Source: an uncultured Acidobacteriota bacterium (GTDB taxonomy: Bacteria; Acidobacteriota; UBA6911; RPQK01; JAPXNP01). From it: DNA of 13,845 nucleotides. The notes beneath the pieces were generated by a model. That model saw only the letters and a list, made by a program, of their open reading frames with translations, was not told the origin of the DNA and searched no databases. The position numbers and the translations under genes are program-made. Within the stretch, counting starts at the first letter, position 1. Each line of letters begins with the position of its first letter. The stretch is from the NCBI GenBank assembly GCA_963777605.1, contig CAVZRV010000024.1:1-13845 (forward strand), in the 5' to 3' direction. Positions 284-13,528 of the stretch are shown piece by piece.

Positions 284-2191
284 TTACCCTCGAACGGGAA
301 ATTCCGAGGAAAGGTCACTCAGGAGGGCCGGCAACACAGGAATCGAGACGCTGGACGGGAAATCGGCAGTACCGGTATACGCGGGGGTTCGGCAGCCTGT
401 GCATGCCTCGGCGCCGGCCTCGAAGATATTCTCCACGAAAGTCTGGCAGTTTTGATTGATAATCGGAAACCAAGCGCCCTGGACCTGGACCATGATGCGG
501 TGTCCCTTTCGGAAAGAGTAGTTCTGAGTGTGCAGGCTTTAGTTGTACTCCAGGACCTTGCCGGCTTCGATCGGCTCCGGTTCCTCGAAACGTCTCCCGG
601 TATCGGCCGCGGAAGACCTCGTTGGAGACCATCAACTGGTAACCGGCCAAGTCCCAGTCTTCCTCGCGGGTAATGTTCCGGGAAGACGTCGATAAGTTTA
701 ACGACCAATTATCGATGGTGCCGGTGGTGGAGGCATAGAGGTGGGCCACGTCCTCCCCGGCGATGGTGATTTATTGTTCTAGGGGAACACTTTCCCAACT
801 CAGGACGTCGGCCCGGTCATCGACAAAGCGCTGGTCCTTACGGGCACCAGCCATGCCTGCCAGGAGGGACCGGCCGTGGAAGTAGGTTGCCTGGATCGGC
901 CGGTGGCGGTAGGGGACCGGGTGTGTCGGGTCGGAGAGATAGCTGTCGAACGCTGCTTTTTGCCCCCCTCGCAGGGGCTTATTGGTTTGAGCCCATCCGA
1001 GCTGAAGTAAAGATTCCTCACGCCGCTCGACCCTGGACCGAGGCGGCCAGGAGTCCCATCGCTGCCAGCGGTTCGACCCCGCTTCGAATGTAAGAGCTTC
1101 CGGAAGATGCAGCCGGCCCTTGTCCTTTAGAAAATACGCGAACCAAGGGGCCGGGACCTCGTCGCTTAAGTAGCGGGAGGTGGAACTGTCGAAAGGGACT
1201 GGACCCAGGCTTGAACCGTTATCCCTTTCGCCATCCTCCGTGAGCTTCAGGGACCCACAACCAGGTAGTTCATGCCCGCCCAATCGGCACTTTTCCAGCG
1301 CTTCATAAATACGCAGGGGACCGTAGAAGTCTCTCTGGTCCCACCAGCCCGCGACGTTCAGGGTAGGCACCTTCACACCGGTGACCGGGGAATCAGAGTT
1401 GATGCTTCCAAAAGGCGTCGTAGTCGGGATGGGCCACGTAGTCGTTCCAGGTTGGGATCTTCCCATGAAAGAGCGGCGGGTTGACATTGGAGAGCGGCCC
1501 CAGGGCCATGTACTGGTCTTGACGTGTCGTAGCGGTCAAAGGGAAAGCGCTGCGTCTCCTGGCCCCCGTCAACCTGGTAGGCATACTCAAAGGAATAGCT
1601 GAGGCGGAATAGGGTTGTGGTGAAAATCGTCCTCGAGCCGACATGTCGGCAGGAGAAGCCTGGGGCTAGATTGCCTTCAACGCAGGATGGGGCTCCATCA
1701 ACGCGCACCACGGTGGTCCAACCGAGATAGGACACCCCAATGATGCCGACCCGGCCGTTGTTCGGGGTCACGTTCTCAAGCATCCACTCGATCGTGTCGT
1801 AGGTGTCGGTTCCTTCATCGAGAGCAGTGGAATCTCCTGGCTCGCGAGCCGGGCGCTGCATCACAAACTCGCCTTCCGACTCGAATTTGCCGCGAATGTC
1901 CTGGAAGGCAAAGATGTAGCCTTCATCAGCCAGGGTCTTCAGCGCAGTAACGAAGTTCCCTTCTGCCCCCGCAACACCGTAAGGGCTCCGAATCAGGATG
2001 ATGGGGAGCGGCTCCGGCTGGTCGCGGGGGATGAAGATCCGAGTGTTCAGGCGGATTCCGTCCCGCATGGGGATCATCTCCTTTCGAATCTCGAAGGGAG
2101 AGACGAACTCACCCTGAGGCTGGACCAGACCGGCTGCCGCAGCAAGGATGATAGTGAGGACGATTGAAACCGTGATCGGAGCATGCTTCAC
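284..2191 (-). pseudogene. CocE/NonD-family serine hydrolase (peptidase S15 / glutaryl-7-ACA acylase-like), split by several frameshifts (decay or sequencing indels)
   Basis: Consecutive minus-strand ORF pieces give a signal-peptide-like N-terminus, 'MIPMRDGIRL', 'RSPYG', 'QDIRGKFESEG', nucleophile motif GVSYLG, 'VPTLNVAGWWDQ', 'SDPTHPVPY', 'DQRFVDDRADVL' and 'VQVQGAWFP'. GTG at 2191 is preceded by GGAGG. The end is approximate. Confidence 0.88.
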
Positions 2192-2424
2192 GTGAACCTC
2201 CCGCAACACCAGTTATAGAGAGCCCAACTTGCCGGGTCAATCGATTCGTGGGGAACTCGAGACTGAAGCTCGAGTTGTTTACTCCGACTTCAGGCTTGGT
2301 GAACGCATCCTGAAAGGAGAGAAGAAGTCCCGACCCGAAGCAATAGCAACGGCATGCTCGCGCCAGTCTTAGCCTTCATCACTTTCGACATCGGAGACTG
2401 TCCTGCCCGGGTTCTCAAGAAATC

Positions 2425-2486: not shown

Positions 2487-2903
2487 ATGGAAGTGCTGTT
2501 GTTTCTCTTGCTGGTCGTCTTCGGATTTGTCGGCTACGGAATGCTAAAACGCTTTCTGCTCGATCAGACGCTGGTCAAACAGCGGGAAATGATTCACAAG
2601 GAAAGGATTATGGCCATGGAAAAAGGACTGCCGATCGATAATCTCCAACTCCCGGAACACACGGTGATGTCGGATGGTTCGCTGCAGGAGAAAGTCCTCG
2701 TTTGGGTTCGGCTCATCGCTCTGGGGTTCGGACTGTTCCTGATTCCGGCTGGAATCGGCATTTGCATCGCCTTTCACTTCTCCGGGAACTTAGATCTTCA
2801 GCCCGTCTGGACGGTCGGATTGATCCCAATACTCTGTGGCTTCGGCCTTCTTCTGTTCTTCCTCTTGAGCAAGGGTTTCAAGGAAGACCTAAAATCAAAA
2901 TAG
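2487..2903 (+). CDS. Small membrane protein, DUF6249-like, ECF-operon associated
   Basis: GGAGG at 2474-2478 precedes ATG 2487. N-terminal TM helix, 'REMIHKERIMAMEKGLP' motif, then two C-terminal TM helices. Confidence 0.75.
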   Translation: MEVLLFLLLVVFGFVGYGMLKRFLLDQTLVKQREMIHKERIMAMEKGLPIDNLQLPEHTVMSDGSLQEKVLVWVRLIALGFGLFLIPAGIGICIAFHFSGNLDLQPVWTVGLIPILCGFGLLLFFLLSKGFKEDLKSK

Positions 2904-3541
2904 TGTTGTCTGCGACTTACTCTCTCGACTTCTTTTGTGTTCCGCTGAAGGACACCGTTCCCCCAACTGCGGTGAGCGACAACTCCGATCTCTGGAAAGA
3001 CGAGGAACTGGTCGGGCACTATTTGAAGACGGGGAAGGATCACTTCTTTGCGATTCTCGTTCGTCGCTACAAGGAGAAAGTGTTTCGACTGGTTCTCTCG
3101 GTTCGGGGGCTCTCGTTCACGGAAGAAGCCGAAGAAGTCGTGCAGGAGGTGTTTCTGACGGTCCACCGGGACCTGAAGCAGTTTCGCTTTGACAGCCGTT
3201 TCAGCACGTGGCTTTACCGGATTGCATTTAATCGTTCGATCGACTGGCGCCGGAAACCCCGCCTTAAATTCCACCACTCGGGCGAAGGCACGCTTCGCTC
3301 GCAGGCATCCCCCCGGCGAAGTCCCCTGCGGAAGGCGAGCGACCACGAACGCGACGAGCGAATTCTGAAGTGCGTGGAGAGACTTCCCGAACCCGCTCGG
3401 TCGGTTGTCTTCCTGCACTACTGGCTTGACCAGTCGGTGGCGGAGATTGCGCAGTATCTCGATCTCAAATCCTCGACGGTGAAGTCTCACCTGTTCCGGG
3501 CAAGAAAGTTGCTGGGACGTTCACTGAGAGGCAAGGTCTGA
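2903..3541 (+). CDS. RNA polymerase sigma-70 factor, ECF subfamily
   Basis: Region 2 'EAEEVVQEVFL...FRFDSRFSTWLYRIAFN' and region 4 'SVAEIAQYLDLKSSTVKSHLFRARKLL'. Start uncertain: GTG 2903 overlapping the upstream stop, or GTG 2972. Confidence 0.93.
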   Translation: MLSATYSLDFFCVPLKDTVPPTAVSDNSDLWKDEELVGHYLKTGKDHFFAILVRRYKEKVFRLVLSVRGLSFTEEAEEVVQEVFLTVHRDLKQFRFDSRFSTWLYRIAFNRSIDWRRKPRLKFHHSGEGTLRSQASPRRSPLRKASDHERDERILKCVERLPEPARSVVFLHYWLDQSVAEIAQYLDLKSSTVKSHLFRARKLLGRSLRGKV

Positions 3542-4054
3542 AATGGTAAGTACTGCCCCAGCCTGGGCCAGATTGAGCGGTTCTTCGAAGGAGCATTCAA
3601 ATCGGGCGAAGAGCGCAGGCAATGGGAGTCCCATCTCGAGATCTGCGATCAGTGCCGGGATACTCTTTTCGGTCACCAGGAACTGGCCCGAAGCTGGCAG
3701 CGTTTCCCGCTTACCTACCTCTCTCCCCAGTTTGACCAGGAACTTGAGGCCGCCTTGGCACGTGACACGACTCCTGCGGCCTCGAGCCACTGGAAGCGCC
3801 TTCTCTTATGGGCATATTGGGTCCTGACACTTGGTGCCAGTCTAGTGATCCTCGATTCGATCCAGGGCACAATCCAGATTCCAACCGCATTCTGGATTAC
3901 TTTGCTGGTATCCGCGACCCTTCCGCTGATCGCCTTGAGCTTTGCGTTGAAGCAGCTTCGCCTGGGATTCTTTGACCTGCTCCATTTCGCGACGATCGAT
4001 CCCGAGTTTCAGGCGGGTTCCAGTGATTCCGCGCTGCGGGGATCATTCGAATAG
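3542..4054 (+). CDS. Membrane-anchored zinc-binding anti-sigma factor (zf-HC2/ZAS)
   Basis: The frame is open from 3542 to TAG 4054: NGKYCPSLGQIERFF...WESHLEICDQCRD (HxxxCxxC at 3632-3655), followed by two TM helices. There is no in-frame start before the zinc motif (ATG 3543 is out of frame), probably an indel. Confidence 0.8.
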   Translation, partial: NGKYCPSLGQIERFFEGAFKSGEERRQWESHLEICDQCRDTLFGHQELARSWQRFPLTYLSPQFDQELEAALARDTTPAASSHWKRLLLWAYWVLTLGASLVILDSIQGTIQIPTAFWITLLVSATLPLIALSFALKQLRLGFFDLLHFATIDPEFQAGSSDSALRGSFE

Positions 4055-4061
4055 TGAAGCT

Positions 4062-4357
4062 TGCCAACTCCGGCCCGGGATCGCGGTTTTCACGCATTCA
4101 GTACGCAAGTCAGCGCGCGCGTATCCAGGCCTTCATCCATCGCCCACCCCTCGGATCTTGACTCCATCCCGCGGTTCCGGCCTCCGGCAGCACTTCCGCT
4201 GACTCACCATCGCCCGGAGCCGCGCTCGCTGACACTCGCGTTCTGAAATCGGGGTATCCAGGATCCAGCCGAGAACCAGGGCTTCTGAGTTCCACCGATC
4301 GCCCGAATCTCCATCCAGACGCGTCCAAATCATCCAGGATTTCCAGTTCATCCAAAT
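4062..4357 (+). other. Cassette U0: unique non-coding 5' part (hairpin CGCGGTTCCGG...CCGGAGCCGCG) plus a 3' tail shared with type A cassettes
   Basis: Lies between the degenerate first repeat and repeat 4358. The last ~100 bp align with type A tails (CCAGGATCCAGCCGA...TCCACCGATCGCC...TCATCCAAAT). Confidence 0.7.
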
Positions 4358-4416
4358 TGAAGTTTCAGGTCAGCCCCGCCGCCGCGCCCGCCGCGGATCA
4401 TTCAGAGAGTGAAACT

Positions 4417-5134
4417 GGACCTGGCGCTGGAGGCGCCTTGGTTTCAGCCCAGGGCTTGCCCTGGGTCTGGGGTCCCGGCAAGGCGATCGCGGCCTGTAAG
4501 GTCGCGCCGATTCTTCACGTCCGAAGAGGTGTGCCGCCCTTTCAGGGCTGGATTCTTGATGGGTGGGCCGTGAACCCAGGCAAATGCCTGGGCTGGAAAC
4601 AGGCCCCCTTCAGGGGCCCGCCCGGCGCCGATCCTGTGATCCTCACTCATCCACGTCTGGCACCGGACCAGGAACCAGGTTCCAGCCGATAATCGCGTCC
4701 CTGGCTCTCCACCGATCGCCTCAATCCCGTCCAGACGCGTCCAAATCTTCCAGGATTTCCAACTCATCCAAATGAAGTTTTAAGTCAGCCGGGCCCCCGG
4801 CGCCGCGCCCCCGCGGATCATTCAGAGAGTGAAACTGGGCTGGTGCTGGCGCCTTGGTTTCAGGCCAGGGTTCCCTGGGTCTTGGTCCTGCACTTCGGCG
4901 GCCAATCGCGCCGGAATCGGAGCGGAGACGTGCCGCCCTTTCAGGGCGGATTCAGCCCGGTGGCCGTGAACCCAGCAAATGCCGGCTGGAAATCAGGCGC
5001 CCTGCGATCCTGTGATCCTCACTCATCCGCGTCTGGCAACCAGCCAGGTTCCGCCATATTCCCTGGCCTCCACCGATCGCCTCAATCCCCGTCCAGACGC
5101 GTCCAAATCATCCAGGATTTCCAACTCATCCGAA
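4417..5134 (+). repeat. Two type A non-coding REP/REPIN-like cassettes (4417-4772; deleted/degenerate copy 4837-5134)
   Basis: Same sequence family as 8495-10095, with hairpins such as GCCCTTTCAGGGC; the second copy has many short deletions. Confidence 0.88.
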
Positions 5135-5226
5135 TGAAGTTTCAAGTCAGCCCCGCCCCCGGCCGCCGCCGGACCATTCAGAGAGTGAAACTGAGCCAAG
5201 CCTGCGAGAGTCGGCTATGCTTGCGT

Positions 5227-5389
5227 TCGGCACAGGCCCGGGCAGTTCAGACCCGTTGTGCACTGGAGCATGTTGCCCCAAAGTCAGCCTGGTTTCGAGT
5301 GAGGCGATCATTCATTGGCGAGGCCGCTCAGGGCACTCCCCGAAGTCAGAATCCAAATTCACGCCACCTCGAGCCCGAGCCTGTGCCGA
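5227..5389 (+). ncRNA. Putative IS110 bridge RNA (copy in IS unit 1)
   Basis: Lies in the non-coding end upstream of the recombinase. Closed by a stem 5227-5243/5373-5389 (16 of 17 complementary). Contains AAGTCAGCC (5281-5289) and GATCATTCA (5306-5314), identical to the two halves of the array repeat. Confidence 0.75.
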
Positions 5390-5412
5390 TTCACCAGGAG
5401 GACAAAGCTAGC

Positions 5413-6789
5413 ATGAGATCGAAGCGGAAGTCGAGAAGTCGGAAGCGTCGACAGGGTTTGCGAGTGATCCGGGAGCGGGTGGCGGGAATCGATCTGGGTT
5501 CGTGCGAAAGCGCCGGGTGTTGGCCCGATCGGGAGACGGGCCAGTTGAAGGTCCTTTGTTTTGGGACGACGACACCGGAGTTGGAGTTGGTATTGGACGG
5601 ACTCGAGGCCGACAGGATCGAATCGGTGGCGATGGAAGCGACCGGGGTGTACTGGATCCCGCTGTACGAGCTGTTGGTGTCGCGGGGATTCGAAGTGGTG
5701 CTGGTCAATGCGCGGCAGTTGAAGTACGTCCCGGGCCGCAAGACCGACATCAAGGATTGCCAGTGGATCCAGTTGCTGCACAGTTGTGGTTTGCTGCGGG
5801 GATCGTTCCGACCCGCCGAAGCGATCTGTCAGTTGCGGGCGCTCGAGCGGGAGCGGGCCGGACTGGTGGGGCTGGCGGGGCAGGCGGTGCAGATGATGCA
5901 GAAGGCGCTCGACCAGATGAACGTGCAGGTGCACCGGGCGGTGACGGATCTGACGGGACAGACCGGAATGGCGATCGTGCGGGCGATGGTCGGCGGCGAA
6001 CGGGATCCGTTTCGACTGGCGGCTTTGCGGGACCGGCGCTGTCGGAAGTCGGAAGCCAAAATAGCGGAGCATCTGACGGGGACGTGGCGGGAGGAACACC
6101 TGTTCAACCTGGGCAAAGCGTTGGAGTGGTATGACTTCGTGCAGGGTCAACTGGCCGACTATGACGAGGAGATCGGACGCGTGCTCCACCGACTCGAGGC
6201 GAGCGACCGAGCCGATCAGGAGCCGGGGCCCCATCCCCAGCCCACCAAGGAGCGGGCGCTGAACAAACGGGGAGAGCAGCAGCGACGCACGATGCTGTGG
6301 CGGGTGACCGGCGTGGACCTGACCCGGATCGACGGCATCGCTGCGCCGGCGGCCCAACGCATCCTCAGCGAGATCGGCCTGGATCTGTCGGCGTTTCCGG
6401 TCGAAAAGCACTTCGTGTCCTGGCTGCGACTGAGTCCAAAGACCGCCTACTCCGCCGGCAAACCCCTGCGCAAACGTCGCCAGGGCACCGGCTCCACCCG
6501 CGTGGCCAATGTCCTGAGGATGGCCGCGCTGTCCCTGAAACATTCGCAGTCGGCGATGGGAGCCTACTTCCGCCACATCGCCCGACGCAAAGGAGGGGGC
6601 ACCGCCGTCTTCGCCACCGCCCGCAAACTGGCTCAGTACATCTACCGCATGCTCCGCTTCGGTCAGGACTATGTCGACGAAGGCGCCGAAGCCTACGAAG
6701 CACGCTACCGGCTCAAACGGTTCCAGTCCCTCACCAGCACGGCCCAAACCATGGGCTACAAACTGGTTCCGGTGGAGGTCCAAGGATGA
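5413..6789 (+). CDS. IS110-family transposase/recombinase (DEDD RuvC-like domain plus Transposase_20 domain), 458 aa
   Basis: AGGAGG at 5396-5401 and ATG 5413. Catalytic motifs GIDLG, MEATG and RKTDIKD; C-terminal 'IDGIA...SEIG.DLSAF..EKHFVSWLRL.P...YSAGK' with the putative catalytic Ser; 'ATARKLA'. Its stop TGA is the first 3 nt of the array repeat. Confidence 0.96.
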   Translation: MRSKRKSRSRKRRQGLRVIRERVAGIDLGSCESAGCWPDRETGQLKVLCFGTTTPELELVLDGLEADRIESVAMEATGVYWIPLYELLVSRGFEVVLVNARQLKYVPGRKTDIKDCQWIQLLHSCGLLRGSFRPAEAICQLRALERERAGLVGLAGQAVQMMQKALDQMNVQVHRAVTDLTGQTGMAIVRAMVGGERDPFRLAALRDRRCRKSEAKIAEHLTGTWREEHLFNLGKALEWYDFVQGQLADYDEEIGRVLHRLEASDRADQEPGPHPQPTKERALNKRGEQQRRTMLWRVTGVDLTRIDGIAAPAAQRILSEIGLDLSAFPVEKHFVSWLRLSPKTAYSAGKPLRKRRQGTGSTRVANVLRMAALSLKHSQSAMGAYFRHIARRKGGGTAVFATARKLAQYIYRMLRFGQDYVDEGAEAYEARYRLKRFQSLTSTAQTMGYKLVPVEVQG

Positions 6790-6877
6790 AGTTTCAAGTC
6801 AGCCCCGCCCCCGGCGCCGCCGGACCATTCAGAGAGTGAAACTGAGCCAAGCCTGCGAGAGTCGGCTATGCTTGCGT

Positions 6878-7040
6878 TCGGCACAGGCCCGGGCAGTTCA
6901 GACCCGTTGTGCACTGGAGCATGTTGCCCCAAAGTCAGCCTGGTTTCGAGTGAGGCGATCATTCATTGGCGAGGCCGCTCAGGGCACTCCCCGAAGTCAG
7001 AATCCAAATTCACGCCACCTCGAGCCCGAGCCTGTGCCGA
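6878..7040 (+). ncRNA. Putative IS110 bridge RNA (copy in IS unit 2)
   Basis: Same sequence as 5227-5389, offset by 1651 bp. Confidence 0.75.
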
Positions 7041-7063
7041 TTCACCAGGAGGACAAAGCTAGC

Positions 7064-8440
7064 ATGAGATCGAAGCGGAAGTCGAGAAGTCGGAAGCGTC
7101 AACAGGGTTTGCGAGTGATCCGGGAGCGGGTGGCGGGAATCGATCTGGGTTCGTGCGAAAGCGCCGGGTGTTGGCCCGATCGGGAGACGGGCCAGTTGAA
7201 GGTCCTTTGTTTTGGGACGACGACACCGGAGTTGGAGTTGGTATTGGACGGACTCGAGGCCGACAGGATCGAATCGGTGGCGATGGAAGCGACCGGGGTG
7301 TACTGGATCCCGCTGTACGAGCTGTTGGTGTCGCGGGGATTCGAAGTGGTGCTGGTCAATGCGCGGCAGTTGAAGTACGTCCCGGGCCGCAAGACCGACA
7401 TCAAGGATTGCCAGTGGATCCAGTTGCTGCACAGTTGTGGTTTGCTGCGGGGATCGTTCCGACCCGCCGAAGCGATCTGTCAGTTGCGGGCGCTCGAGCG
7501 GGAGCGGGCCGGACTGGTGGGGCTGGCGGGGCAGGCGGTGCAGATGATGCAGAAGGCGCTCGACCAGATGAACGTGCAGGTGCACCGGGCGGTGACGGAT
7601 CTGACGGGACAGACCGGAATGGCGATCGTGCGGGCGATGGTCGGCGGCGAACGGGATCCGTTTCGACTGGCGGCTTTGCGGGACCGGCGCTGTCGGAAGT
7701 CGGAAGCCAAAATAGCGGAGCATCTGACGGGGACGTGGCGGGAGGAACACCTGTTCAACCTGGGCAAAGCGTTGGAGTGGTATGACTTCGTGCAGGGTCA
7801 ACTGGCCGACTATGACGAGGAGATCGGACGCGTGCTCCACCGACTCGAGGCGAGCGACCGAGCCGATCAGGAGCCGGGGCCCCATCCCCAGCCCACCAAG
7901 GAGCGGGCGCTGAACAAACGGGGAGAGCAGCAGCGACGCACGATGCTGTGGCGGGTGACCGGCGTGGACCTGACCCGGATCGACGGCATCGCTGCGCCGG
8001 CGGCCCAACTCATCCTCAGCGAGATCGGCCTGGATCTGTCGGCGTTTCCGGTCGAAAAGCACTTCGTGTCCTGGCTGCGACTGAGTCCAAAGACCGCCTA
8101 CTCCGCCGGCAAACCCCTGCGCAAACGTCGCCAGGGCACCGGCTCCACCCGCGTGGCCAATGTCCTGAGGATGGCCGCGCTGTCCCTGAAACATTCGCAG
8201 TCGGCGATGGGAGCCTACTTCCGCCACATCGCCCGACGCAAAGGAGGGGGCACCGCCGTCTTCGCCACCGCCCGCAAACTGGCTCAGTACATCTACCGCA
8301 TGCTCCGCTTCGGTCAGGACTATGTCGACGAAGGCGCCGAAGCCTACGAAGCACGCTACCGGCTCAAACGGTTCCAGTCCCTCACCAGCACGGCCCAAAC
8401 CATGGGCTACAAACTGGTTCCGGTGGAGGTCCAAGGATGA
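7064..8440 (+). CDS. IS110-family transposase/recombinase, 458 aa (second copy)
   Basis: Same motifs as 5413-6789, with two amino-acid differences (R>Q near the N-terminus; QRI>QLI). Confidence 0.96.
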   Translation: MRSKRKSRSRKRQQGLRVIRERVAGIDLGSCESAGCWPDRETGQLKVLCFGTTTPELELVLDGLEADRIESVAMEATGVYWIPLYELLVSRGFEVVLVNARQLKYVPGRKTDIKDCQWIQLLHSCGLLRGSFRPAEAICQLRALERERAGLVGLAGQAVQMMQKALDQMNVQVHRAVTDLTGQTGMAIVRAMVGGERDPFRLAALRDRRCRKSEAKIAEHLTGTWREEHLFNLGKALEWYDFVQGQLADYDEEIGRVLHRLEASDRADQEPGPHPQPTKERALNKRGEQQRRTMLWRVTGVDLTRIDGIAAPAAQLILSEIGLDLSAFPVEKHFVSWLRLSPKTAYSAGKPLRKRRQGTGSTRVANVLRMAALSLKHSQSAMGAYFRHIARRKGGGTAVFATARKLAQYIYRMLRFGQDYVDEGAEAYEARYRLKRFQSLTSTAQTMGYKLVPVEVQG

Positions 8441-8494
8441 AGTTTCAAGTCAGCCCCGCCCCCGGCGGCGCCGGATCATTCAGAGAGTGAAACT

Positions 8495-10095
8495 GGACCT
8501 GGCGCTGGAGGCGCCTTGGTTTCAGCCAAGGGCTTGCCCTGGGTTTGTGGTCCTGCACTTCGATTGCGGCCTGTAAGGTCGCGCCGATTCTTCACGTCCG
8601 GAGAGCTGTGCCGCCCTTTCAGGGCTGGATTCTTGATGGGTGGGCCGTGAACCCAGGCAAATGCCTGGGCTGGAAACAGGCCCCCTTCAGGGGCCAGTCC
8701 GGCGCCGATCCCGTGATCATCACTCATCCACGTCTGGCACCGGACCGAGGAACCAGGATCCAGCCGATAATCACGTCCCTGGCTCTCCACCGATCGCCTC
8801 AATCCCCGTCCAGACGCATCCAATTCGTCCAGGTTCTTCAACTCATCCCAAATGAAGTTTCAGGTTAGCCCCGCCCCCGGCGCGCGCCGGATCATTCAGA
8901 GAGTGAAACTGGACCTGGCGCTGGAGGCGCCTTGGTTTCAGCCCAGGGCTTGCCCTGGGTTTGTGGTCCGGCAAATCGATTGCGGCCTGTAAGGTCGCGC
9001 CGATTCTTCACGTCCGGAGAGCTGTGCCGCCCTTTCAGGGCTGGATTCTTGATGGGTGGGCCGTGAACCCAGGCAAATGCCTGGGCTGGAAACAGGCCCC
9101 CTTCAGGGGCCAGTCCGGCGCCGATCCCGTGATCATCACTCATCCACGTCTGGCACCGGACCAGGAACCAGGATCCAGCCGATAATCACGTCCCTGGCTC
9201 TCCACCGATCGCCTCAATCCCCGTCCAGACGCATCCAATTCGTCCAGGTTCTTCAACTCATCCCAAATGAAGTTTCAAGTCAGCCCCGCCCCCGGCGGCG
9301 CCGGATCATTCAGAGAGTGAAACTGGACCTGGCGCTGGAGGCGCCTTGGTTTTCAGCCCAGGCTTGCCCTGGGTTTGTGGTCCTGCACTTCGATTGCGGC
9401 CTGTAAGGTCGCGCCGATTCTTCACGTCCGGAGAGCTGTGCCGCCCTTTCAGGGCTGGATTCTTGATGGGTGGGCCGTGAACCCAGGCAAATGCCTGGGC
9501 TGGGAACAGGCCCCCTTCAGGGGCCAGTCCGGCGCCGATCCCGTGATCATCACTCATCCACGTCTGGCACCGGACCAGGAACCAGGATCCAGCCGATAAT
9601 CACGTCCCTGGCTCTCCACCGATCGCCTCAATCCCCGTCCAGACGCATCCAATTCGTCCAGGTTCTTCAACTCATCCCAAATGAAGTTTCAAGTCAGCCC
9701 CGCCCCCGGCGGCGCCGGATCATTCAGAGAGTGAAACTGGACCTGGCGCTGGAGGCGCCTTGGTTTCAGCCCAGGGCTTGCCCTGGGTTTGTGGTCCTGC
9801 ACTTCGATTGCGGCCTGTAAGGTCGCGCCGATTCTTCACGTCCGGAGAGCTGTGCCGCCCTTTCAGGGCTGGATTCTTGATGGGTGGGCCGTGAACCCAG
9901 GCAAATGCCTGGGCTGGAAACAGGCCCCCTTCAGGGGCCAGTCCGGCGCCGATCCCGTGATCATCACTCATCCACGTCTGGCACCGGACCAGGAACCAGG
10001 ATCCAGCCGATAATCACGTCCCTGGCTCTCCACCGATCGCCTCAATCCCCGTCCAGACGCATCCAATTCGTCCAGGTTCTTCAACTCATCCCAAA
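8495..10095 (+). repeat. Four tandem type A non-coding cassettes (8495-8852, 8911-9267, 9325-9681, 9739-10095), period 414-415 bp
   Basis: Near-identical units with an inverted pair of REP-like palindrome clusters followed by a TCCA-rich tail; no conserved credible ORF. Confidence 0.92.
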
Positions 10096-10152
10096 TGAAG
10101 TTTCAAGTCAGCCCCGCCCCCGGCCGCCGCCGGACCATTCAAAGTGTGAAAC

Positions 10153-10181
10153 TTGCCGCGGCCGCATCAATCGATTAAAAT
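10153..10181 (+). promoter_or_regulatory. Sigma70-like promoter TTGCCG-N17-TAAAAT of the type B cassette (repeated at 10569-10597 and 10984-11012)
   Basis: -35 at 10153-10158, 17-bp spacer, -10 at 10176-10181, about 10 nt upstream of the RNA's terminal stem. Confidence 0.7.
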
Positions 10182-10190
10182 CCACTGCGC

Positions 10191-10353
10191 GGCATGAGCA
10201 GTGGCAGTTAAGACCCTCGAGGCACTGGCGCATTTTTGCCCCAAAGTCAGCTTGGTCCCGGGCTGTGCGATCATTCATTAGTGAGGCTCTTGGAGCACTC
10301 CTCAAGGTCAGAATAGACCATTCAGACAGCCACCCCGGGCCACCGTTCATGCC
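10191..10353 (+). ncRNA. Putative stand-alone bridge RNA, B1
   Basis: Terminal stem GGCATGAGCAGTGGC/GCCACCGTTCATGCC shows compensatory changes relative to the IS copy. Guide-like AAGTCAGC at 10244-10251 and GATCATTCA at 10269-10277. Confidence 0.72.
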
Positions 10354-10606
10354 CCTTTTGAAAAGCCTGCTCATGCGGATTCGCGGAGATTGGGCGTGGT
10401 GTCCCCATCACGCTCAAACGGCTCGATAGACGACTTTTTTCTCGCCACTCGCTGTTCTCAGCGGCAGCAGCATCTCTCACAGAATACAAGAGTTAGCGGA
10501 ATTGCCGAGATTGAAGTTTCAGGTCAGCCCCGCCCCCGGCCGCCGCCGGACCATTCAAAGTGTGAAACTTGCCGCGGCCGCATCAATCGATTAAAATCCA
10601 CTGCGC

Positions 10607-10769
10607 GGCATGAGCAGTGGCAGTTAAGACCCTCGAGGCACTGGCGCATTTTTGCCCCAAAGTCAGCTTGGTCCCGGGCTGTGCGATCATTCATTAGTGA
10701 GGCTCTTGGAGCACTCCTCAAGGTCAGAATAGACCATTCAGACAGCCACCCCGGGCCACCGTTCATGCC
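10607..10769 (+). ncRNA. Putative stand-alone bridge RNA, B2
   Basis: Copy of B1. Confidence 0.72.
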
Positions 10770-11021
10770 CCTTTTGAAAAGCTGTTCATGCGGATTCGCG
10801 GAGATTGGGCGTGGTGTCCCCATCACGCTCAAACGGCTCGATAGACGACTTTTTTCTCGCCACTCGCTGTTCTCAGCGGCAGCAGCATCTCTCACAGAAT
10901 ACAAGAGTTAGCGGAATTGCCGAGATTGAAGTTTCAGGTCAGCCCCGCCCCCGGCCGCCGCCGGACCATTCAAAGTGTGAAACTTGCCGCGGCCGCATCA
11001 ATCGATTAAAATCCACTGCGC

Positions 11022-11183
11022 GGCATGAGCAGTGGCAGTTAAGACCCTCGAGGCACTGGCGCATTTTTGCCCCAAAGTCAGCTTGGTCCCGGGCTGTGCG
11101 ATCATTCATTAGTGAGGCTCTTGGAGCACTCCTCAAGGTCAGAATAGACCATTCAGACAGCCACCCGGGCCACCGTTCATGCC
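11022..11183 (+). ncRNA. Putative stand-alone bridge RNA, B3
   Basis: Copy of B1 with a 1-nt homopolymer difference. Confidence 0.72.
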
Positions 11184-11397
11184 CCTTTTGAAAAGCCTGC
11201 TCATGCGGATTCGCGGAGATTGGCGTGGTGTCCCCATCACGCTCAAACGGCTCGATAGACGACTTTTTTCTCGCCACTCGCTGTTCTCAGCGGCAGCAGC
11301 ATCTCTCACAGAATACAAGAGTTAGCGGAATTGCCGAGATTGAAGTTTCAGGTCAGCCCCGCCCCCGGCGGCGCCGGACCATTCAGAGAGTGAAACT

Positions 11398-11670
11398 GGT
11401 GAAGCATCGCCAGATGAGCGCGCCAACGGCGCAGGGTCATTTCCAGCCCGGCGGCAACGCCCCGGGAATCGGAGCCAAGACGGCAATGCAGCACTGAAAG
11501 TGCGATTCAGTCCCGGCGGCGGACGATTTCAGAAGAACCCGGAAATCAAGAACCCTGGATTGAGAAGGTTCACTTCCGCCGGGCAAGCTGCCCGGCCGCC
11601 ATAAGGCAGGGATGCCTGGATTACTTTCCCTCCAGAAACGAGAAACCAGGAACCAGGAACTCATCCCGAT
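11398..11670 (+). other. Cassette C: unique non-coding unit with a REP-like palindrome cluster and heptamer repeats
   Basis: GCGCCAACGGCGC...CCAGCCCGGCGGCAACGCCCGGG...GCACTGAAAGTGC, hairpin CGGGCAAGCTGCCCG, tail AGAAACG-AGAAACC-AGGAACC-AGGAACT; flanked by standard array repeats. Confidence 0.75.
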
Positions 11671-11727
11671 TGAAGTTTCAAGTCAGCCCCGCCCCCGGCG
11701 GCGCCGGACCATTCAAAGAGTGAAACT

Positions 11728-12504
11728 GGACCTGGCGCTGGAGGCGCCTTGGTTTCAGCCCAGGGCTTGCCTTGGGTCTGTGGTCCCGGCAAGGCGATCG
11801 CGGCCTGTAAGGTCGCGCCGATTCTTCCGTCCGAAGAGCTGTTCAGCCCTTTCAGGGCTGGATTCTTGATGGGGGGGCCGTAAACCCAGGCAAATGCCTG
11901 AGCTGGAAACAGGCCCCCTTCGAGGGGCCCGCCCGGCGCCGATACCGTGATCATCACTCATCCACGTCTGGCACCGGACCCGGAACCAGGATCCAGCCGA
12001 TAATCACGTCCCTGGCTCTCCACCGATCGCCTCAATCCCCGTCCAGACGCATCCAATTCGTCCAGGTTCTTCAACTCATCCCAAATGAAGTTTCAAGTCA
12101 GCCCCGCCCCCGCGCCCTCCGTCGGATCATTCAGAGAGTGAAACTCGACCTGGCGCTGGAAGGCGCCTTGGTTTCAGACCAGGGCTTGCCCTGGGTTCGT
12201 GGTCCCGGCAAGGCGATCGCGGCCTGTAAGGTCGCGCCGATTCTTCACGTCCGGAGAGCTGTGCCGCCCTTTCAGGGCTGGATTCTTGATGGGTGGGCCG
12301 TGAACCCAGGCAAATGCCTGGGCTGGAAACAGGCCCCCTTCAGGGGCCAGTCCGGCGCCGATCCTGTGATCATCACTCATCCACGTCTGGCACCGGACCC
12401 GGAACCAGGATCCAGCCGATAATCACGTCCCTGGCTCTCCACCGATCGCCCGAATTCCCATCCAAACGCGTCCAAATCATCCAGTTCTTCCAGTTCATCC
12501 AAAT
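11728..12504 (+). repeat. Two more type A cassettes (11728-12085, 12146-12504)
   Basis: Same family. They share the variant 'GGTCCCGGCAAGGCGATCGC' with the 4417 copy rather than with the central four. Confidence 0.9.
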
Positions 12505-12548
12505 TGAAGTTTCAGGTCAGCGGCGCCCCTCCCGCTACGCGCGGAAGA

Positions 12549-12577
12549 TTCAAAGGGTGTGCCATGTGGGGTAGAAT
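12549..12577 (+). promoter_or_regulatory. Putative sigma70 promoter TTCAAA-N17-TAGAAT for the downstream epimerase gene, overlapping the terminal repeat
   Basis: TTCAAA at 12549-12554 and TAGAAT at 12572-12577, 35 nt before ATG 12613. Confidence 0.5.
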
Positions 12578-12612: not shown

Positions 12613-13528
12613 ATGAATAACGAATCTTCGCGTCGAGATTTTCTCAAGACTTCTGTGCCATGGTTGCGGGTGCGGGAATCATGAGTTCCCTGGCCGGTGC
12701 TCCTCCGGCGTGCGGCCGTACCAAAGAAGGCCAAGCTCACCAAGGGCGTGGTGTGGGGCACGCTGCCCGAAGAGCTCAGCTACGACGAGCGCCTGAAACT
12801 CGCCGCGGATGCGGGCTTCGAAGTGGTCGAAGGGTAACCGTAGAGGACCCGCGCGAGGCAGAAAAGATCAAGACGGCGGCGGAGAAAGCCGGAATCCACC
12901 TCAGTTCCGTGATGAACCAGGCTCATTGGCCTTACCCCCTCTCGAGCAGCGATCCCGAAGTCGTCAAGAAGAGCCTCGATGGCATGCGCACCTCGCTTCG
13001 CAACGCCTCCTTGTGGGGCGCCGACGCCGTATTACTTGTGCCTGCCGTGGTTGATGCAGGAACCCCCTACCGTACCGCGTACGAACGCTCGCAAAAACAC
13101 ATTCGGGAACTGATCCCCCTGGCCGAGGAATTGAAGGTAGCCATCGCGGTCGAGGAGGTCTGGAATAAGTTCCTGTTGAGCCCGATGGAATTTGCCAACT
13201 ACGTCGACGAGTTCAAGAGCCCCTGGGTCCGGGCCTATTTTGACGTCGGAAACGTGGTCATCTTCGGCTACCCGCAGGACTGGATCCGCACATTGGGCAG
13301 CCGGATCAAGAAGGTCCATCTGAAAGACTTCAAGGTCATGACCACGGGGTTCAGCCCCTTCAGCACCGAGTTCGTCAACCTTGGCGACGGCGACATCGAC
13401 TGGCCCGAGGTTCGCAAAGCCCTGGACGAGATCGGGTACGAAGGCACCGTGATCGCCGAACTCGACGCGGGCGACCTGCCTACCTGACCGACGTCCGCAA
13501 ACGGATCGACCGCCTGCTGATGATTTAG
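12613..13528 (+). CDS. Tat-exported sugar phosphate isomerase/epimerase (xylose isomerase-like TIM barrel / AP endonuclease 2 family), apparently frameshifted
   Basis: N-terminal MNNESSRRDFLK twin-arginine motif. Core motifs 'IAVEEVWNKFLLSP', 'YFDVGN', 'VHLKDF' and 'LGDGDIDW..V..AL..IGY.G'. Frame changes in the 5' part and near 13480; the shifted frame ends YLTDVRKRIDRLLMI-TAG 13528. Confidence 0.85.

Follow-up and report, generated by a model that had tools for sequence, protein, structure and literature searches.

A predicted bridge RNA with equal target and donor guides in an IS110-family element of an acidobacterial array with gene-less units

The leader of an IS110-family element in an Acidobacteriota assembly (GCA_963777605.1) probably encodes a bridge RNA in which the word that reads the target and the word that reads the donor are the same, AAGUCAG, and equal the right-end terminus of the element itself. 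The window analysed here is an entire contig of 13.8 kb (C24), and all positions refer to it. In the mechanism proposed, the element would insert behind right ends of its own family, with strand exchange directly after ...AAGTCAG. The AAGUCAG of the first arm of the RNA would recognise the target, the AAGUCAG of the second arm would pair with the last 7 nt of the right end, and a further segment of the second arm, GAUCAUUCA (seg2), would recognise the element's own left-end motif about 20 bp inside the crossover and in the same sense. Because target guide and donor guide are equal, every insertion would recreate its own target, the identical terminus of the newcomer being the next site, and an array of IS copies and gene-less units would result. 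Gene-less units of types A, B and C, which have the same ends, would be moved in trans by the IS recombinase, and the B units would carry an RNA whose donor guide, AGGUCAG, fits the B right end. To this reading as a whole, that is a bridge RNA with the guides as assigned and array growth by self-targeting, a probability of about three in four is given. Sequence comparison shows the fold, the place of the segments in loops, their covariation with DNA, the ends of the elements and a target logo restricted to the left side; that the RNA is transcribed and pairs with DNA, that recombination takes place, that units move in trans and what seg2 does, we infer.

The array is flanked by an ECF sigma-factor gene and a gene coding for a xylose-isomerase-like TIM-barrel protein (Table 1). 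Its units follow each other in the order X, A, A', IS, IS, A (four times), B (three times), C, A, A, and degenerate half-sites are found at both outer ends. The left end of a unit consists of a GC-rich spacer, the motif GAYCATTCA and TGAAACT, and at the right end AGTTTCA is followed by a terminal 7-mer, ARGTCAG. AAGTCAG occurs 17 times in the window and GAYCATTCA 22 times, all on the plus strand, while 1.55 and 0.30 occurrences are expected, and neither count was reached in any of 200 shuffles. These sites are the unit junctions and the leaders of the two IS copies and the three B units. ORFs of 83 aa and 116 aa in the A units were without any Pfam family. Folding of the junction repeat as DNA gave an outer stem and a small GC hairpin (z -0.75 to -2.15), a structure that is suggestive only; the GC hairpin is missing from distant homologues.

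Table 1 Features of the IS110-family element, its predicted bridge RNA and the surrounding array
Feature	Position	Strand	Remarks
ECF sigma-factor gene	2702-3538		array flank
Head-to-tail array	~4040-12560	+	~15 units
Right-end terminus of upstream unit A'	5138-5150	+	AGTTTCA 5138-5144; AAGTCAG 5144-5150, left target (LT) of IS copy 1
IS110-family element, copy 1	5151-6802	+	1652 bp
Left-end terminus, copy 1	5151-5192	+	spacer with small hairpin 5151-5171; GACCATTCA 5172-5180; TGAAACT 5186-5192
Predicted bridge RNA	5227-5389	+	alignment-based fold; covariance-model match 5224-5390
P1 helix	5229-5243/5373-5387	+	closes the RNA
P2 helix	5250-5253/5291-5294	+	arm 1
P2b helix	5265,5266,5268,5269/5278-5275	+	arm 1
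Putative left target guide (LTG), AAGUCAG	5281-5287	+	unpaired, 3' side of arm 1 internal loop
P3 helix	5295-5299/5368-5372	+	arm 2
seg2, GAUCAUUCA (DNA GATCATTCA)	5306-5314	+	unpaired between P3 and P4, donor loop
P4 helix	5317-5327/5330-5340	+	arm 2
Putative left donor guide (LDG), AAGUCAG	5343-5349	+	unpaired, 3' side of arm 2 loop, between P4 and P3
Recombinase gene, copy 1	5413-6789	+	458 aa; AGGAGG at 5396-5401
Terminal 7-mer AAGTCAG, copy 1 (left donor, LD)	6796-6802	+	also left target of IS copy 2
IS110-family element, copy 2	6803-8453	+	1651 bp; gene 7064-8440; predicted bridge RNA 6875-7041
Putative guides of IS copy 2	6932-6938, 6957-6965, 6994-7000	+	
Four A units	8454-10111	+	414-415 bp; 98% alike; non-coding by Pfam
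Three B units	10112-11356	+	414-416 bp; predicted bridge RNA each, without recombinase gene
RNA matches in B units	10186-10356, 10602-10772, 11017-11186	+	covariance model
Putative guides of first B unit	10244-10250, 10269-10277, 10305-10311	+	LTG AAGTCAG; seg2; LDG AGGTCAG
Extra GACCATTCAGA in first B unit	10316-10326	+	added 11-letter copy of the left-end word
C unit	11357-11686	+	330 bp
Xylose-isomerase-like TIM-barrel gene	12660-13484		other flank of array

The recombinase matches the Pfam families DEDD_Tnp_IS110 (PF01548, E 9.4e-20) and Transposase_20 (PF02371, E 8.7e-11), and scores 218.2 bits against the NCBIfam model NF033542 (IS110 family RNA-guided transposase), of which the cut-off is 140. 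Its sole solved relative is the IS621 transposase, which is remote (E 4e-5). The element is a deep-branching member of the IS110 family, present in two tandem copies. It has a left end of ~262 nt before the gene, a right end of 13 nt after the stop codon and a subterminal inverted repeat, AGTTTCA/TGAAACT, of 7-8 bp. Homologues were taken from genomes of the same order (16 of the 76 have a match, the source genome counted), from one Bryobacterales genome with ~60 copies, from one Planctomycetota genome with ~20 copies and from metagenome contigs; none of the conclusions depends on the unpublished genome G070. In the multi-copy homologues the left end begins with the spacer and the right end closes directly after the terminal 7-mer. 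The boundaries of the Bryobacterales element rest on copies with 48 different left and 59 different right flanks, and are concordant with those of the Planctomycetota copies and of three copies with different flanks in a further genome (G004). The rule taken from these homologues, with the right-end terminus 6 nt after GTTTC[AT], was applied to the window, where a unit runs from the first letter after ...ARGTCAG up to the next ...ARGTCAG. Spacer variants, visible as local polymorphisms, move together with the downstream unit, and in the version of the locus on a second contig (C8) the sequence past the IS pair diverges from the first letter after AAGTCAG. These comparisons place the crossover directly after ...AAGTCAG, and not at the TCAG of CATTCAG, as a first-pass annotation of this DNA had it; the circle junction should then have the right-end terminus fused to the GC-rich beginning of the left end, where that annotation had expected a junction to AGAG.

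The fold of the predicted RNA was derived with RNAalifold from an alignment of 13 leaders, belonging to recombinases 42-100% identical to that of the window, and was completed manually to five helices. It is a three-way junction of one closing stem and two arms, with an internal loop in each arm. Among the 13 leaders 95.2% of the cells pair and 22 of the 37 pairs show compensatory changes, while slid-partner controls pair in 26-52% of the cells. Four of five measures of the fold were matched by none of 500 shuffles, and the fifth by 3 of 500. With a covariance model built from the alignment, the RNA was detected in 35 of 80 metagenome loci, each time directly ahead of the gene and at protein identities as low as ~35%, and in all five related genomes searched; a search of the whole window with all Rfam families gave no match at E up to 1. 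Single-sequence folding gave a z of -2.06 and a minimum-energy fold that pairs part of the LTG. This fold was set aside in favour of the alignment-based one, in which the three guide segments lie outside every helix. The first-pass annotation had taken the leader for a bridge RNA enclosed by a stem, and both points agree with the covariation-supported fold (5227/5229-5243 with 5373-5387/5389), as does its expectation that the segments matching the repeat, CACTC excepted, lie in loops and not in stems. A scan for sigma-70-like promoters and terminators around the IS leader found none. At least part of the IS is contained in 20 of the 21 runs listed, one of which, with a small share, is on record as RNA; this sole RNA run yielded one contig of 151 nt at 5875-6025, inside the gene, which is uninformative either way on the bridge RNA.

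The arm from 5250 to 5294 is assigned to the target and the arm from 5295 to 5372 to the donor, on the basis of their agreement with the DNA at the ends of the respective elements. The LDG (alignment columns 154-160) equals the terminal 7-mer of the right end at 90 of 91 positions in 13 elements, which have nine different words, with a non-cognate mean of 4.08 out of 7. For the LTG (columns 73-79), 87 of 91 positions agree with the 7 nt that immediately precede the left end (non-cognate mean 4.76 out of 7). The right-end terminus was set independently of the guides by the GTTTC[AT] rule; for the left flank the best match in a fixed window was used, cognate and non-cognate pairs being treated alike. 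Permutation tests on the 13 elements gave 0 of 20000 for each of LTG, LDG and seg2, counts that overstate independence because the homologues are related, and the signal was absent from reverse-complement controls (6443 and 18243 of 20000). In an independent metagenome set the LDG equals the right-end terminus at 7 of 7 letters in 21 of the 33 testable loci and at 6 of 7 in a further 11, and permutation tests with 20-25 non-redundant elements again gave 0 of 20000 for LDG, LTG and seg2 each. In the Bryobacterales genome, where the LT is host DNA, LTG and LT covary. The left flanks of the copies in this genome (n=48) contain 0.73-2.0 bits at positions -8 to -1, and the right flanks (n=59) at most 0.23 bits per position from +1 to +12. 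These data uphold the earlier view that the array's own repeat is what the RNA is programmed against, together with the prediction that its loop letters covary with DNA sites in homologues, although the guide portion of the 9-mer AAGTCAGCC is confined to its first 7 letters; both the B RNA and a metagenome variant of ~98% identity have a T as letter 9. Both LTG and LDG end in AG in all 13 aligned leaders, and this common AG is therefore probably the core; in a distant group the guides end in AT. Target guide and donor guide differ in the nearest relative found (L142, 82% identity), so that the coincidence of LTG and LDG is a state of the element in the window. Family-wide, target guides resemble right-end termini above chance (67 of 91 positions; 8 of 20000).

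The seg2 segment matches the left-end motif in the same sense, exactly for the A units and with a U-G wobble for the IS's own GACCATTCA. The word that it matches is located 16-22 nt from the crossover, inside the element. Over 8 letters, seg2 agrees with the left-end window at 88 of 104 positions, with a non-cognate mean of 5.47 out of 8, a signal that is below that of the LDG (the cognate mean for seg2 is 6.6-6.8 of 8). In one closely related metagenome group seg2 and the left-end word co-vary at several positions. Moreover, seg2 follows the element's own left end even where the targets are without the motif (Bryobacterales, Planctomycetota OZ245006 and G004), and for this reason it is read as a putative distal donor guide. 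Alternatively, it could be a protein-recognition motif common to RNA and DNA. Since the sense of seg2 is that of the DNA motif, the strand bound by seg2 would be the one that the LDG also binds, a type of distal donor pairing that is not described in the portions of the IS110 literature consulted. A 5-mer scan of all RNA columns against the 30 nt to the right of the crossover, for target and donor and on both strands, gave no diagonal for right-hand guides of the IS621 type (RTG and RDG, complementary to the top strand beside the core); the best difference was below 1.0 versus 2.6-2.9 for the left guides. Together with the low information content of the right flanks, this suggests that the bridge RNAs of this family read only the left half of the target.

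The covariance model also matches each of the three B units, which have no recombinase gene. In their RNA the target guide and seg2 are kept, and the LDG, AGGUCAG, equals the B unit's own right-end terminus. The first-pass annotation had described AAGTCAGC, GATCATTCA and CACTC as unchanged in the diverged RNA of these units, which is correct. The whole genome has leader-like RNAs that lack a gene, six of them intact and two decayed, while in five related genomes almost no such RNA is present away from a gene. Five B RNAs on four contigs have an identical covariance-model score of 143.6 bits. Right ends in the genome carry AGGTCAG 32 times and AAGTCAG 22 times, and each of two sets of units may be served by an RNA with a donor specificity of its own. 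The B-to-B junctions have one mismatch to the LTG. A sigma-70-like site (TTGCCG-17-TAAAAT, 10153-10181), which is only a weak match to the consensus, is located just before the first B RNA.

The pattern of the array extends to the rest of the genome. A match of at least 6 of 7 letters to ARGTCAG is present 20-28 nt upstream of 94 of 156 left-end motifs, versus 413 of 20000 random positions (2.1%). Of these 94 left ends 64 abut the right end of another unit and 30 do not. The genome has only four recombinase genes but at least 150 left ends, and most units are thus non-autonomous. Both large arrays of the genome contain an IS pair. The 7-nt target word occurs 670 times in the genome, yet the IS is present at only one kind of locus; the word alone cannot explain why the IS is placed only in arrays, and the model lacks some other determinant. 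The locus of C24 recurs on contig C8, with flanks that are 92-93% identical, IS copies that are 99% alike and a different unit content. Either two related populations have been binned together (contamination 5.7%) or the locus has been duplicated; under both explanations the comparison indicates that the mobile units are younger than the locus.

Other explanations of the matches between leader and repeat can be weighed against these data. The four strings on which the first-pass annotation was built are all present at the places given (AAGTCAGCC at 5281-5289, GATCATTCA at 5306-5314, CACTC at 5334-5338 and AAGTCAGA at 5343-5350). Its model took the two 9-mers for the left and right guides of one target, with crossovers at the TCAG of AAGTCAG and of CATTCAG, and predicted a junction AAGTCAG-AGAG, which AAGTCAGA would fit over 8 nt, and a left end guided by CACTC. 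The target in the own genome, a junction of two units, does contain GATCATTCA exactly. However, only the AAGTCAG at 5281 behaves as a left target guide, whereas GATCATTCA is part of the donor loop and follows the left end of the element itself, including in elements whose targets are free of the motif. The multi-copy homologues have their boundaries after the terminal 7-mer and their left start at the GC-rich spacer, spacer polymorphisms go with the downstream unit, 11 of 13 leaders have an A directly behind the LDG regardless of the letter that follows in the DNA, and the empty target predicted by that model, GATCATTCAGCC, was found once in 6.7 Mb. CACTC is complementary to GAGTG as letters, but a role as guide does not follow from this: it belongs to the 3' strand of P4, where 3 of its 5 letters are paired, it shows no covariation and it is retained in homologues whose left ends are without GAGTG. 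It was rejected as a left-end guide, and the match is ascribed to chance. The two-halves model is accordingly considered very improbable. We think equally little of the idea that the identities go back to a former copy of the junction repeat within the left end, or are shared protein-binding motifs, instead of guides. Every match does have the same sense as the DNA, and a protein could recognise the seg2 word in RNA and DNA alike. Against this, the segments lie in loops of a fold that is kept by compensatory changes among recombinases down to ~35% identity, they follow each other in the RNA as target word, motif and donor word, which is not the order of the repeat, and they change position by position with the DNA, over nine right-end types in 13 elements and in close metagenome elements; the covariation of LTG and LT where the LT is host DNA points the same way.

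A different objection accepts the guides as described and concerns the growth of the array, which might be due mainly to homologous or unequal crossing-over, or to one-sided half-match duplication, between junction repeats of ~58 bp, guided insertion of circles being minor. The junction repeats offer that much homology, and the four tandem A units, at 98% identity, could have arisen by unequal crossing-over instead of insertion. Partial duplications of the right end are found in the Bryobacterales genome. In the portion consulted of a study of expanded IS110 loci, the tandem units there are credited to LD-side half-matches resolved in place (bioRxiv 10.64898/2026.08.14.744561). Crossing-over would have difficulty in accounting for arrays that mix unrelated types of units (A, B, C, D and IS), for two versions of the locus that are unlike in content, for identical B units in four arrays on four contigs with a different upstream unit in each, and for the 30 left ends that stand behind an ARGTCAG word in non-family DNA. 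These four observations call for insertion, and crossing-over as the main process is regarded as unlikely, though the two can operate side by side.

That bridge RNAs exist, with their loops and their diversity, is already established in the literature, as far as consulted (PMC11208160; bioRxiv 10.64898/2026.10.21.760802). The element of the window shares with IS621 and the IS110 group, as described in the portions of Durrant et al. 2024 (PMC11208160) used here, a recombinase with DEDD and Tnp domains, a structured RNA encoded ahead of the gene in a long left end, a short right end, one target loop and one donor loop, left guides that have the sense of the top strand and include the terminal (core) letters, and a preference for repeated intergenic sequences. 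It differs from IS621 in its protein of 458 aa, versus 328 aa in the solved IS621 chain, in the three-way junction formed by its RNA, and in the left guides, which are on the 3' sides of the loops and on the 5' sides in IS621 (PMC11208160). In addition, right guides beside the core were not found in the RNA family of the window, LTG and LDG are equal, and the donor appears to be read also, in the same sense, at a site ~20 bp into the left end. The subterminal inverted repeats of 7-8 bp, longer than the 2-3 bp of the IS110 group, resemble those of the IS1111 group (7-17 bp), some members of which insert into the ends or sites of other mobile elements; in contrast, the RNA of IS1111 elements is located in a long right end (PMC11208160). 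The element thus combines an RNA location as in the IS110 group with inverted repeats like those of IS1111.

Expanded IS110 loci have been described in which non-coding units and whole IS110 modules stand in tandem beside the recombinase gene and LD-type matches are retained at the boundaries of repeat units, as is the case here (bioRxiv 10.64898/2026.08.14.744561, main text as consulted). According to that study insertion splits the target without regeneration, whereas in the window LT equals LD and insertion would yield a full left target again; gene-less units carrying a bridge RNA are not mentioned in the text consulted. ISPpu9 and ISPpu10 of Pseudomonas putida are also IS110 elements that insert into repeated palindromic sequences (PMC12288879; bioRxiv 10.64898/2026.03.19.712850; portions consulted of both). 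The small-RNA module ssr9 of ISPpu9 forms circles of its own and was called a selfish rider on the transposase (PMC12288879), and a GC-rich stem-loop adds specificity to the targets of ISPpu10 (bioRxiv 10.64898/2026.03.19.712850). Unlike ssr9, the riding B module of the present array is predicted to carry a bridge RNA with its own donor guide, and the GC-rich hairpin is here in the left end of the element, on the donor side, and not conserved in distant homologues. The arrays are also much longer than those of ISPpu9 and ISPpu10, as far as the consulted sources describe these. In the portions of the literature on IS110 bridge systems that were consulted, no element with equal target and donor guides, no gene-less unit with a bridge RNA, no left-only reading of a target and no distal same-sense donor word was found.

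Bridge recombinases are under development as programmable tools for genome writing, and their mechanism is known from IS621 and a few relatives. If the reading proposed here is true, the family of the window has a different guide logic, with a single target guide of 7-8 nt and a donor that is partly read away from the crossover. It would also provide a natural self-regenerating target, a possible reason for the long arrays of mixed units next to these IS110 genes. In the B unit, which has kept the guide RNA and lost the enzyme gene, a new type of non-autonomous element would be at hand. Should the RNA not be made, a well-supported comparative annotation of an unusual IS110 subfamily remains.

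In integron cassette arrays, short units are separated by an imperfect palindromic attC site that is used for both excision and insertion. The array of the window has short units separated by an imperfect palindromic site as well, a likeness that is an analogy only: its units are non-coding by Pfam and its recombinase is an RNA-guided DEDD/serine enzyme of the IS110 family. It may be speculated that the locus is a cassette array run by bridge RNA, in which every junction is both donor and target. One recombinase and two RNAs with an equal target specificity and different donor specificities (AAGUCAG and AGGUCAG) could then excise, reinsert and shuffle units as in an integron, with the B unit as a hitchhiker equipped with a guide of its own. 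Only the left half of the target (7-8 nt) would be read by the RNA, and the donor would be read in two pieces on one strand, first at the terminus and again at a word that lies some two helical turns into the left end. This extension is tentative and, in our judgement, somewhat more likely wrong than right.

Elements ~98% identical to the IS are present on metagenome contigs from soil, wetland and salt marsh. Variants from two metagenome runs (X1 and X5) share 11 substitutions and 2 indels in the leader, and all of these changes lie outside the three guide segments. Metagenome sequences also include joints of 5193 to 6778 and of 5193 to 6780, with short sides of 30-35 letters.

The RNA of the B unit, which lacks a recombinase gene, is preceded immediately upstream by a sigma-70-like site, and no site of this kind was found in the leader of the IS110-family element (IS) in the array. 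Four letters past the donor guide of the B RNA, the 7-mer equal to the right-end terminus of the B unit itself, begins the segment GACCATTCAGA, an 11-letter copy, in the same sense, of the word that lies ~20 bp inside the left end. It occurs at the equivalent place in the other B units as well. Donor guide and GACCATTCAGA together are colinear with the donor, provided that the GC-rich spacer at the start of the left end is looped out.

Features of the window and of contig C8 of the same genome
Feature	Location	Remark
Sigma-70-like site	window 10153-10181	TTGCCG-17-TAAAAT
GACCATTCAGA in B RNA	window 10316-10326	
AAGTCAG	window 4107-4113	within unit X
Peptidase S15-like gene	window 774-2209, minus strand	overlapping frames 774-1487 and 1376-2209
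Second version of array locus	G000:C8:329250-336450, minus strand	flanks 92-93% identical to those of the window
B-like unit	G000:C8:331384-332128	

The array locus is present in a second version on contig C8, where the units follow in the order X, A, D, IS, IS, B*, B', B, C, A, A and differ in content from those in the window. Either the bin combines two related populations, or the locus has been duplicated and the copies have diverged. One B-like unit on C8 is broken by ~16 consecutive C and then a run of A well over 100 letters long; this has the look of masked sequence or of an artefact of the assembly. In the window, the IS terminal 7-mer and target word AAGTCAG also occurs at a place that is not used as insertion site. 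The peptidase S15-like gene of the window appears to be split over two frames and may contain a frameshift or be a pseudogene.

Relatives of the element were found in other genomes. In a Bryobacterales MAG (CBDCOC01; loci L051-L129) partial repeats of the element's own right-end region lie behind many of its copies. These begin at an internal ...CTACCAG word similar to the terminus, and look like products of one-sided recombination. Of the relative in Planctomycetota MAG OZ245006 (L108-L128), three copies were inspected (L108, L109 and L111), and these are located within the loop of, or adjoining, a GGTACGGAGC-type word; in two of them the word forms a palindrome spanning the insertion, and the site resembles a REP-type target. 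On metagenome contig Ga0302285_10007980 (L155) the insertion site is the heptamer TAGGTAG, present in at least four tandem copies and differing by one letter from the target guide of that element. A more distant group (L166 and relatives, ~36-38% protein identity) has guides ending in AAT and inverted repeats CGTTAG/CTAACG. A CGTTA-type word also precedes the targets of this group, as if these were the right ends of relatives.
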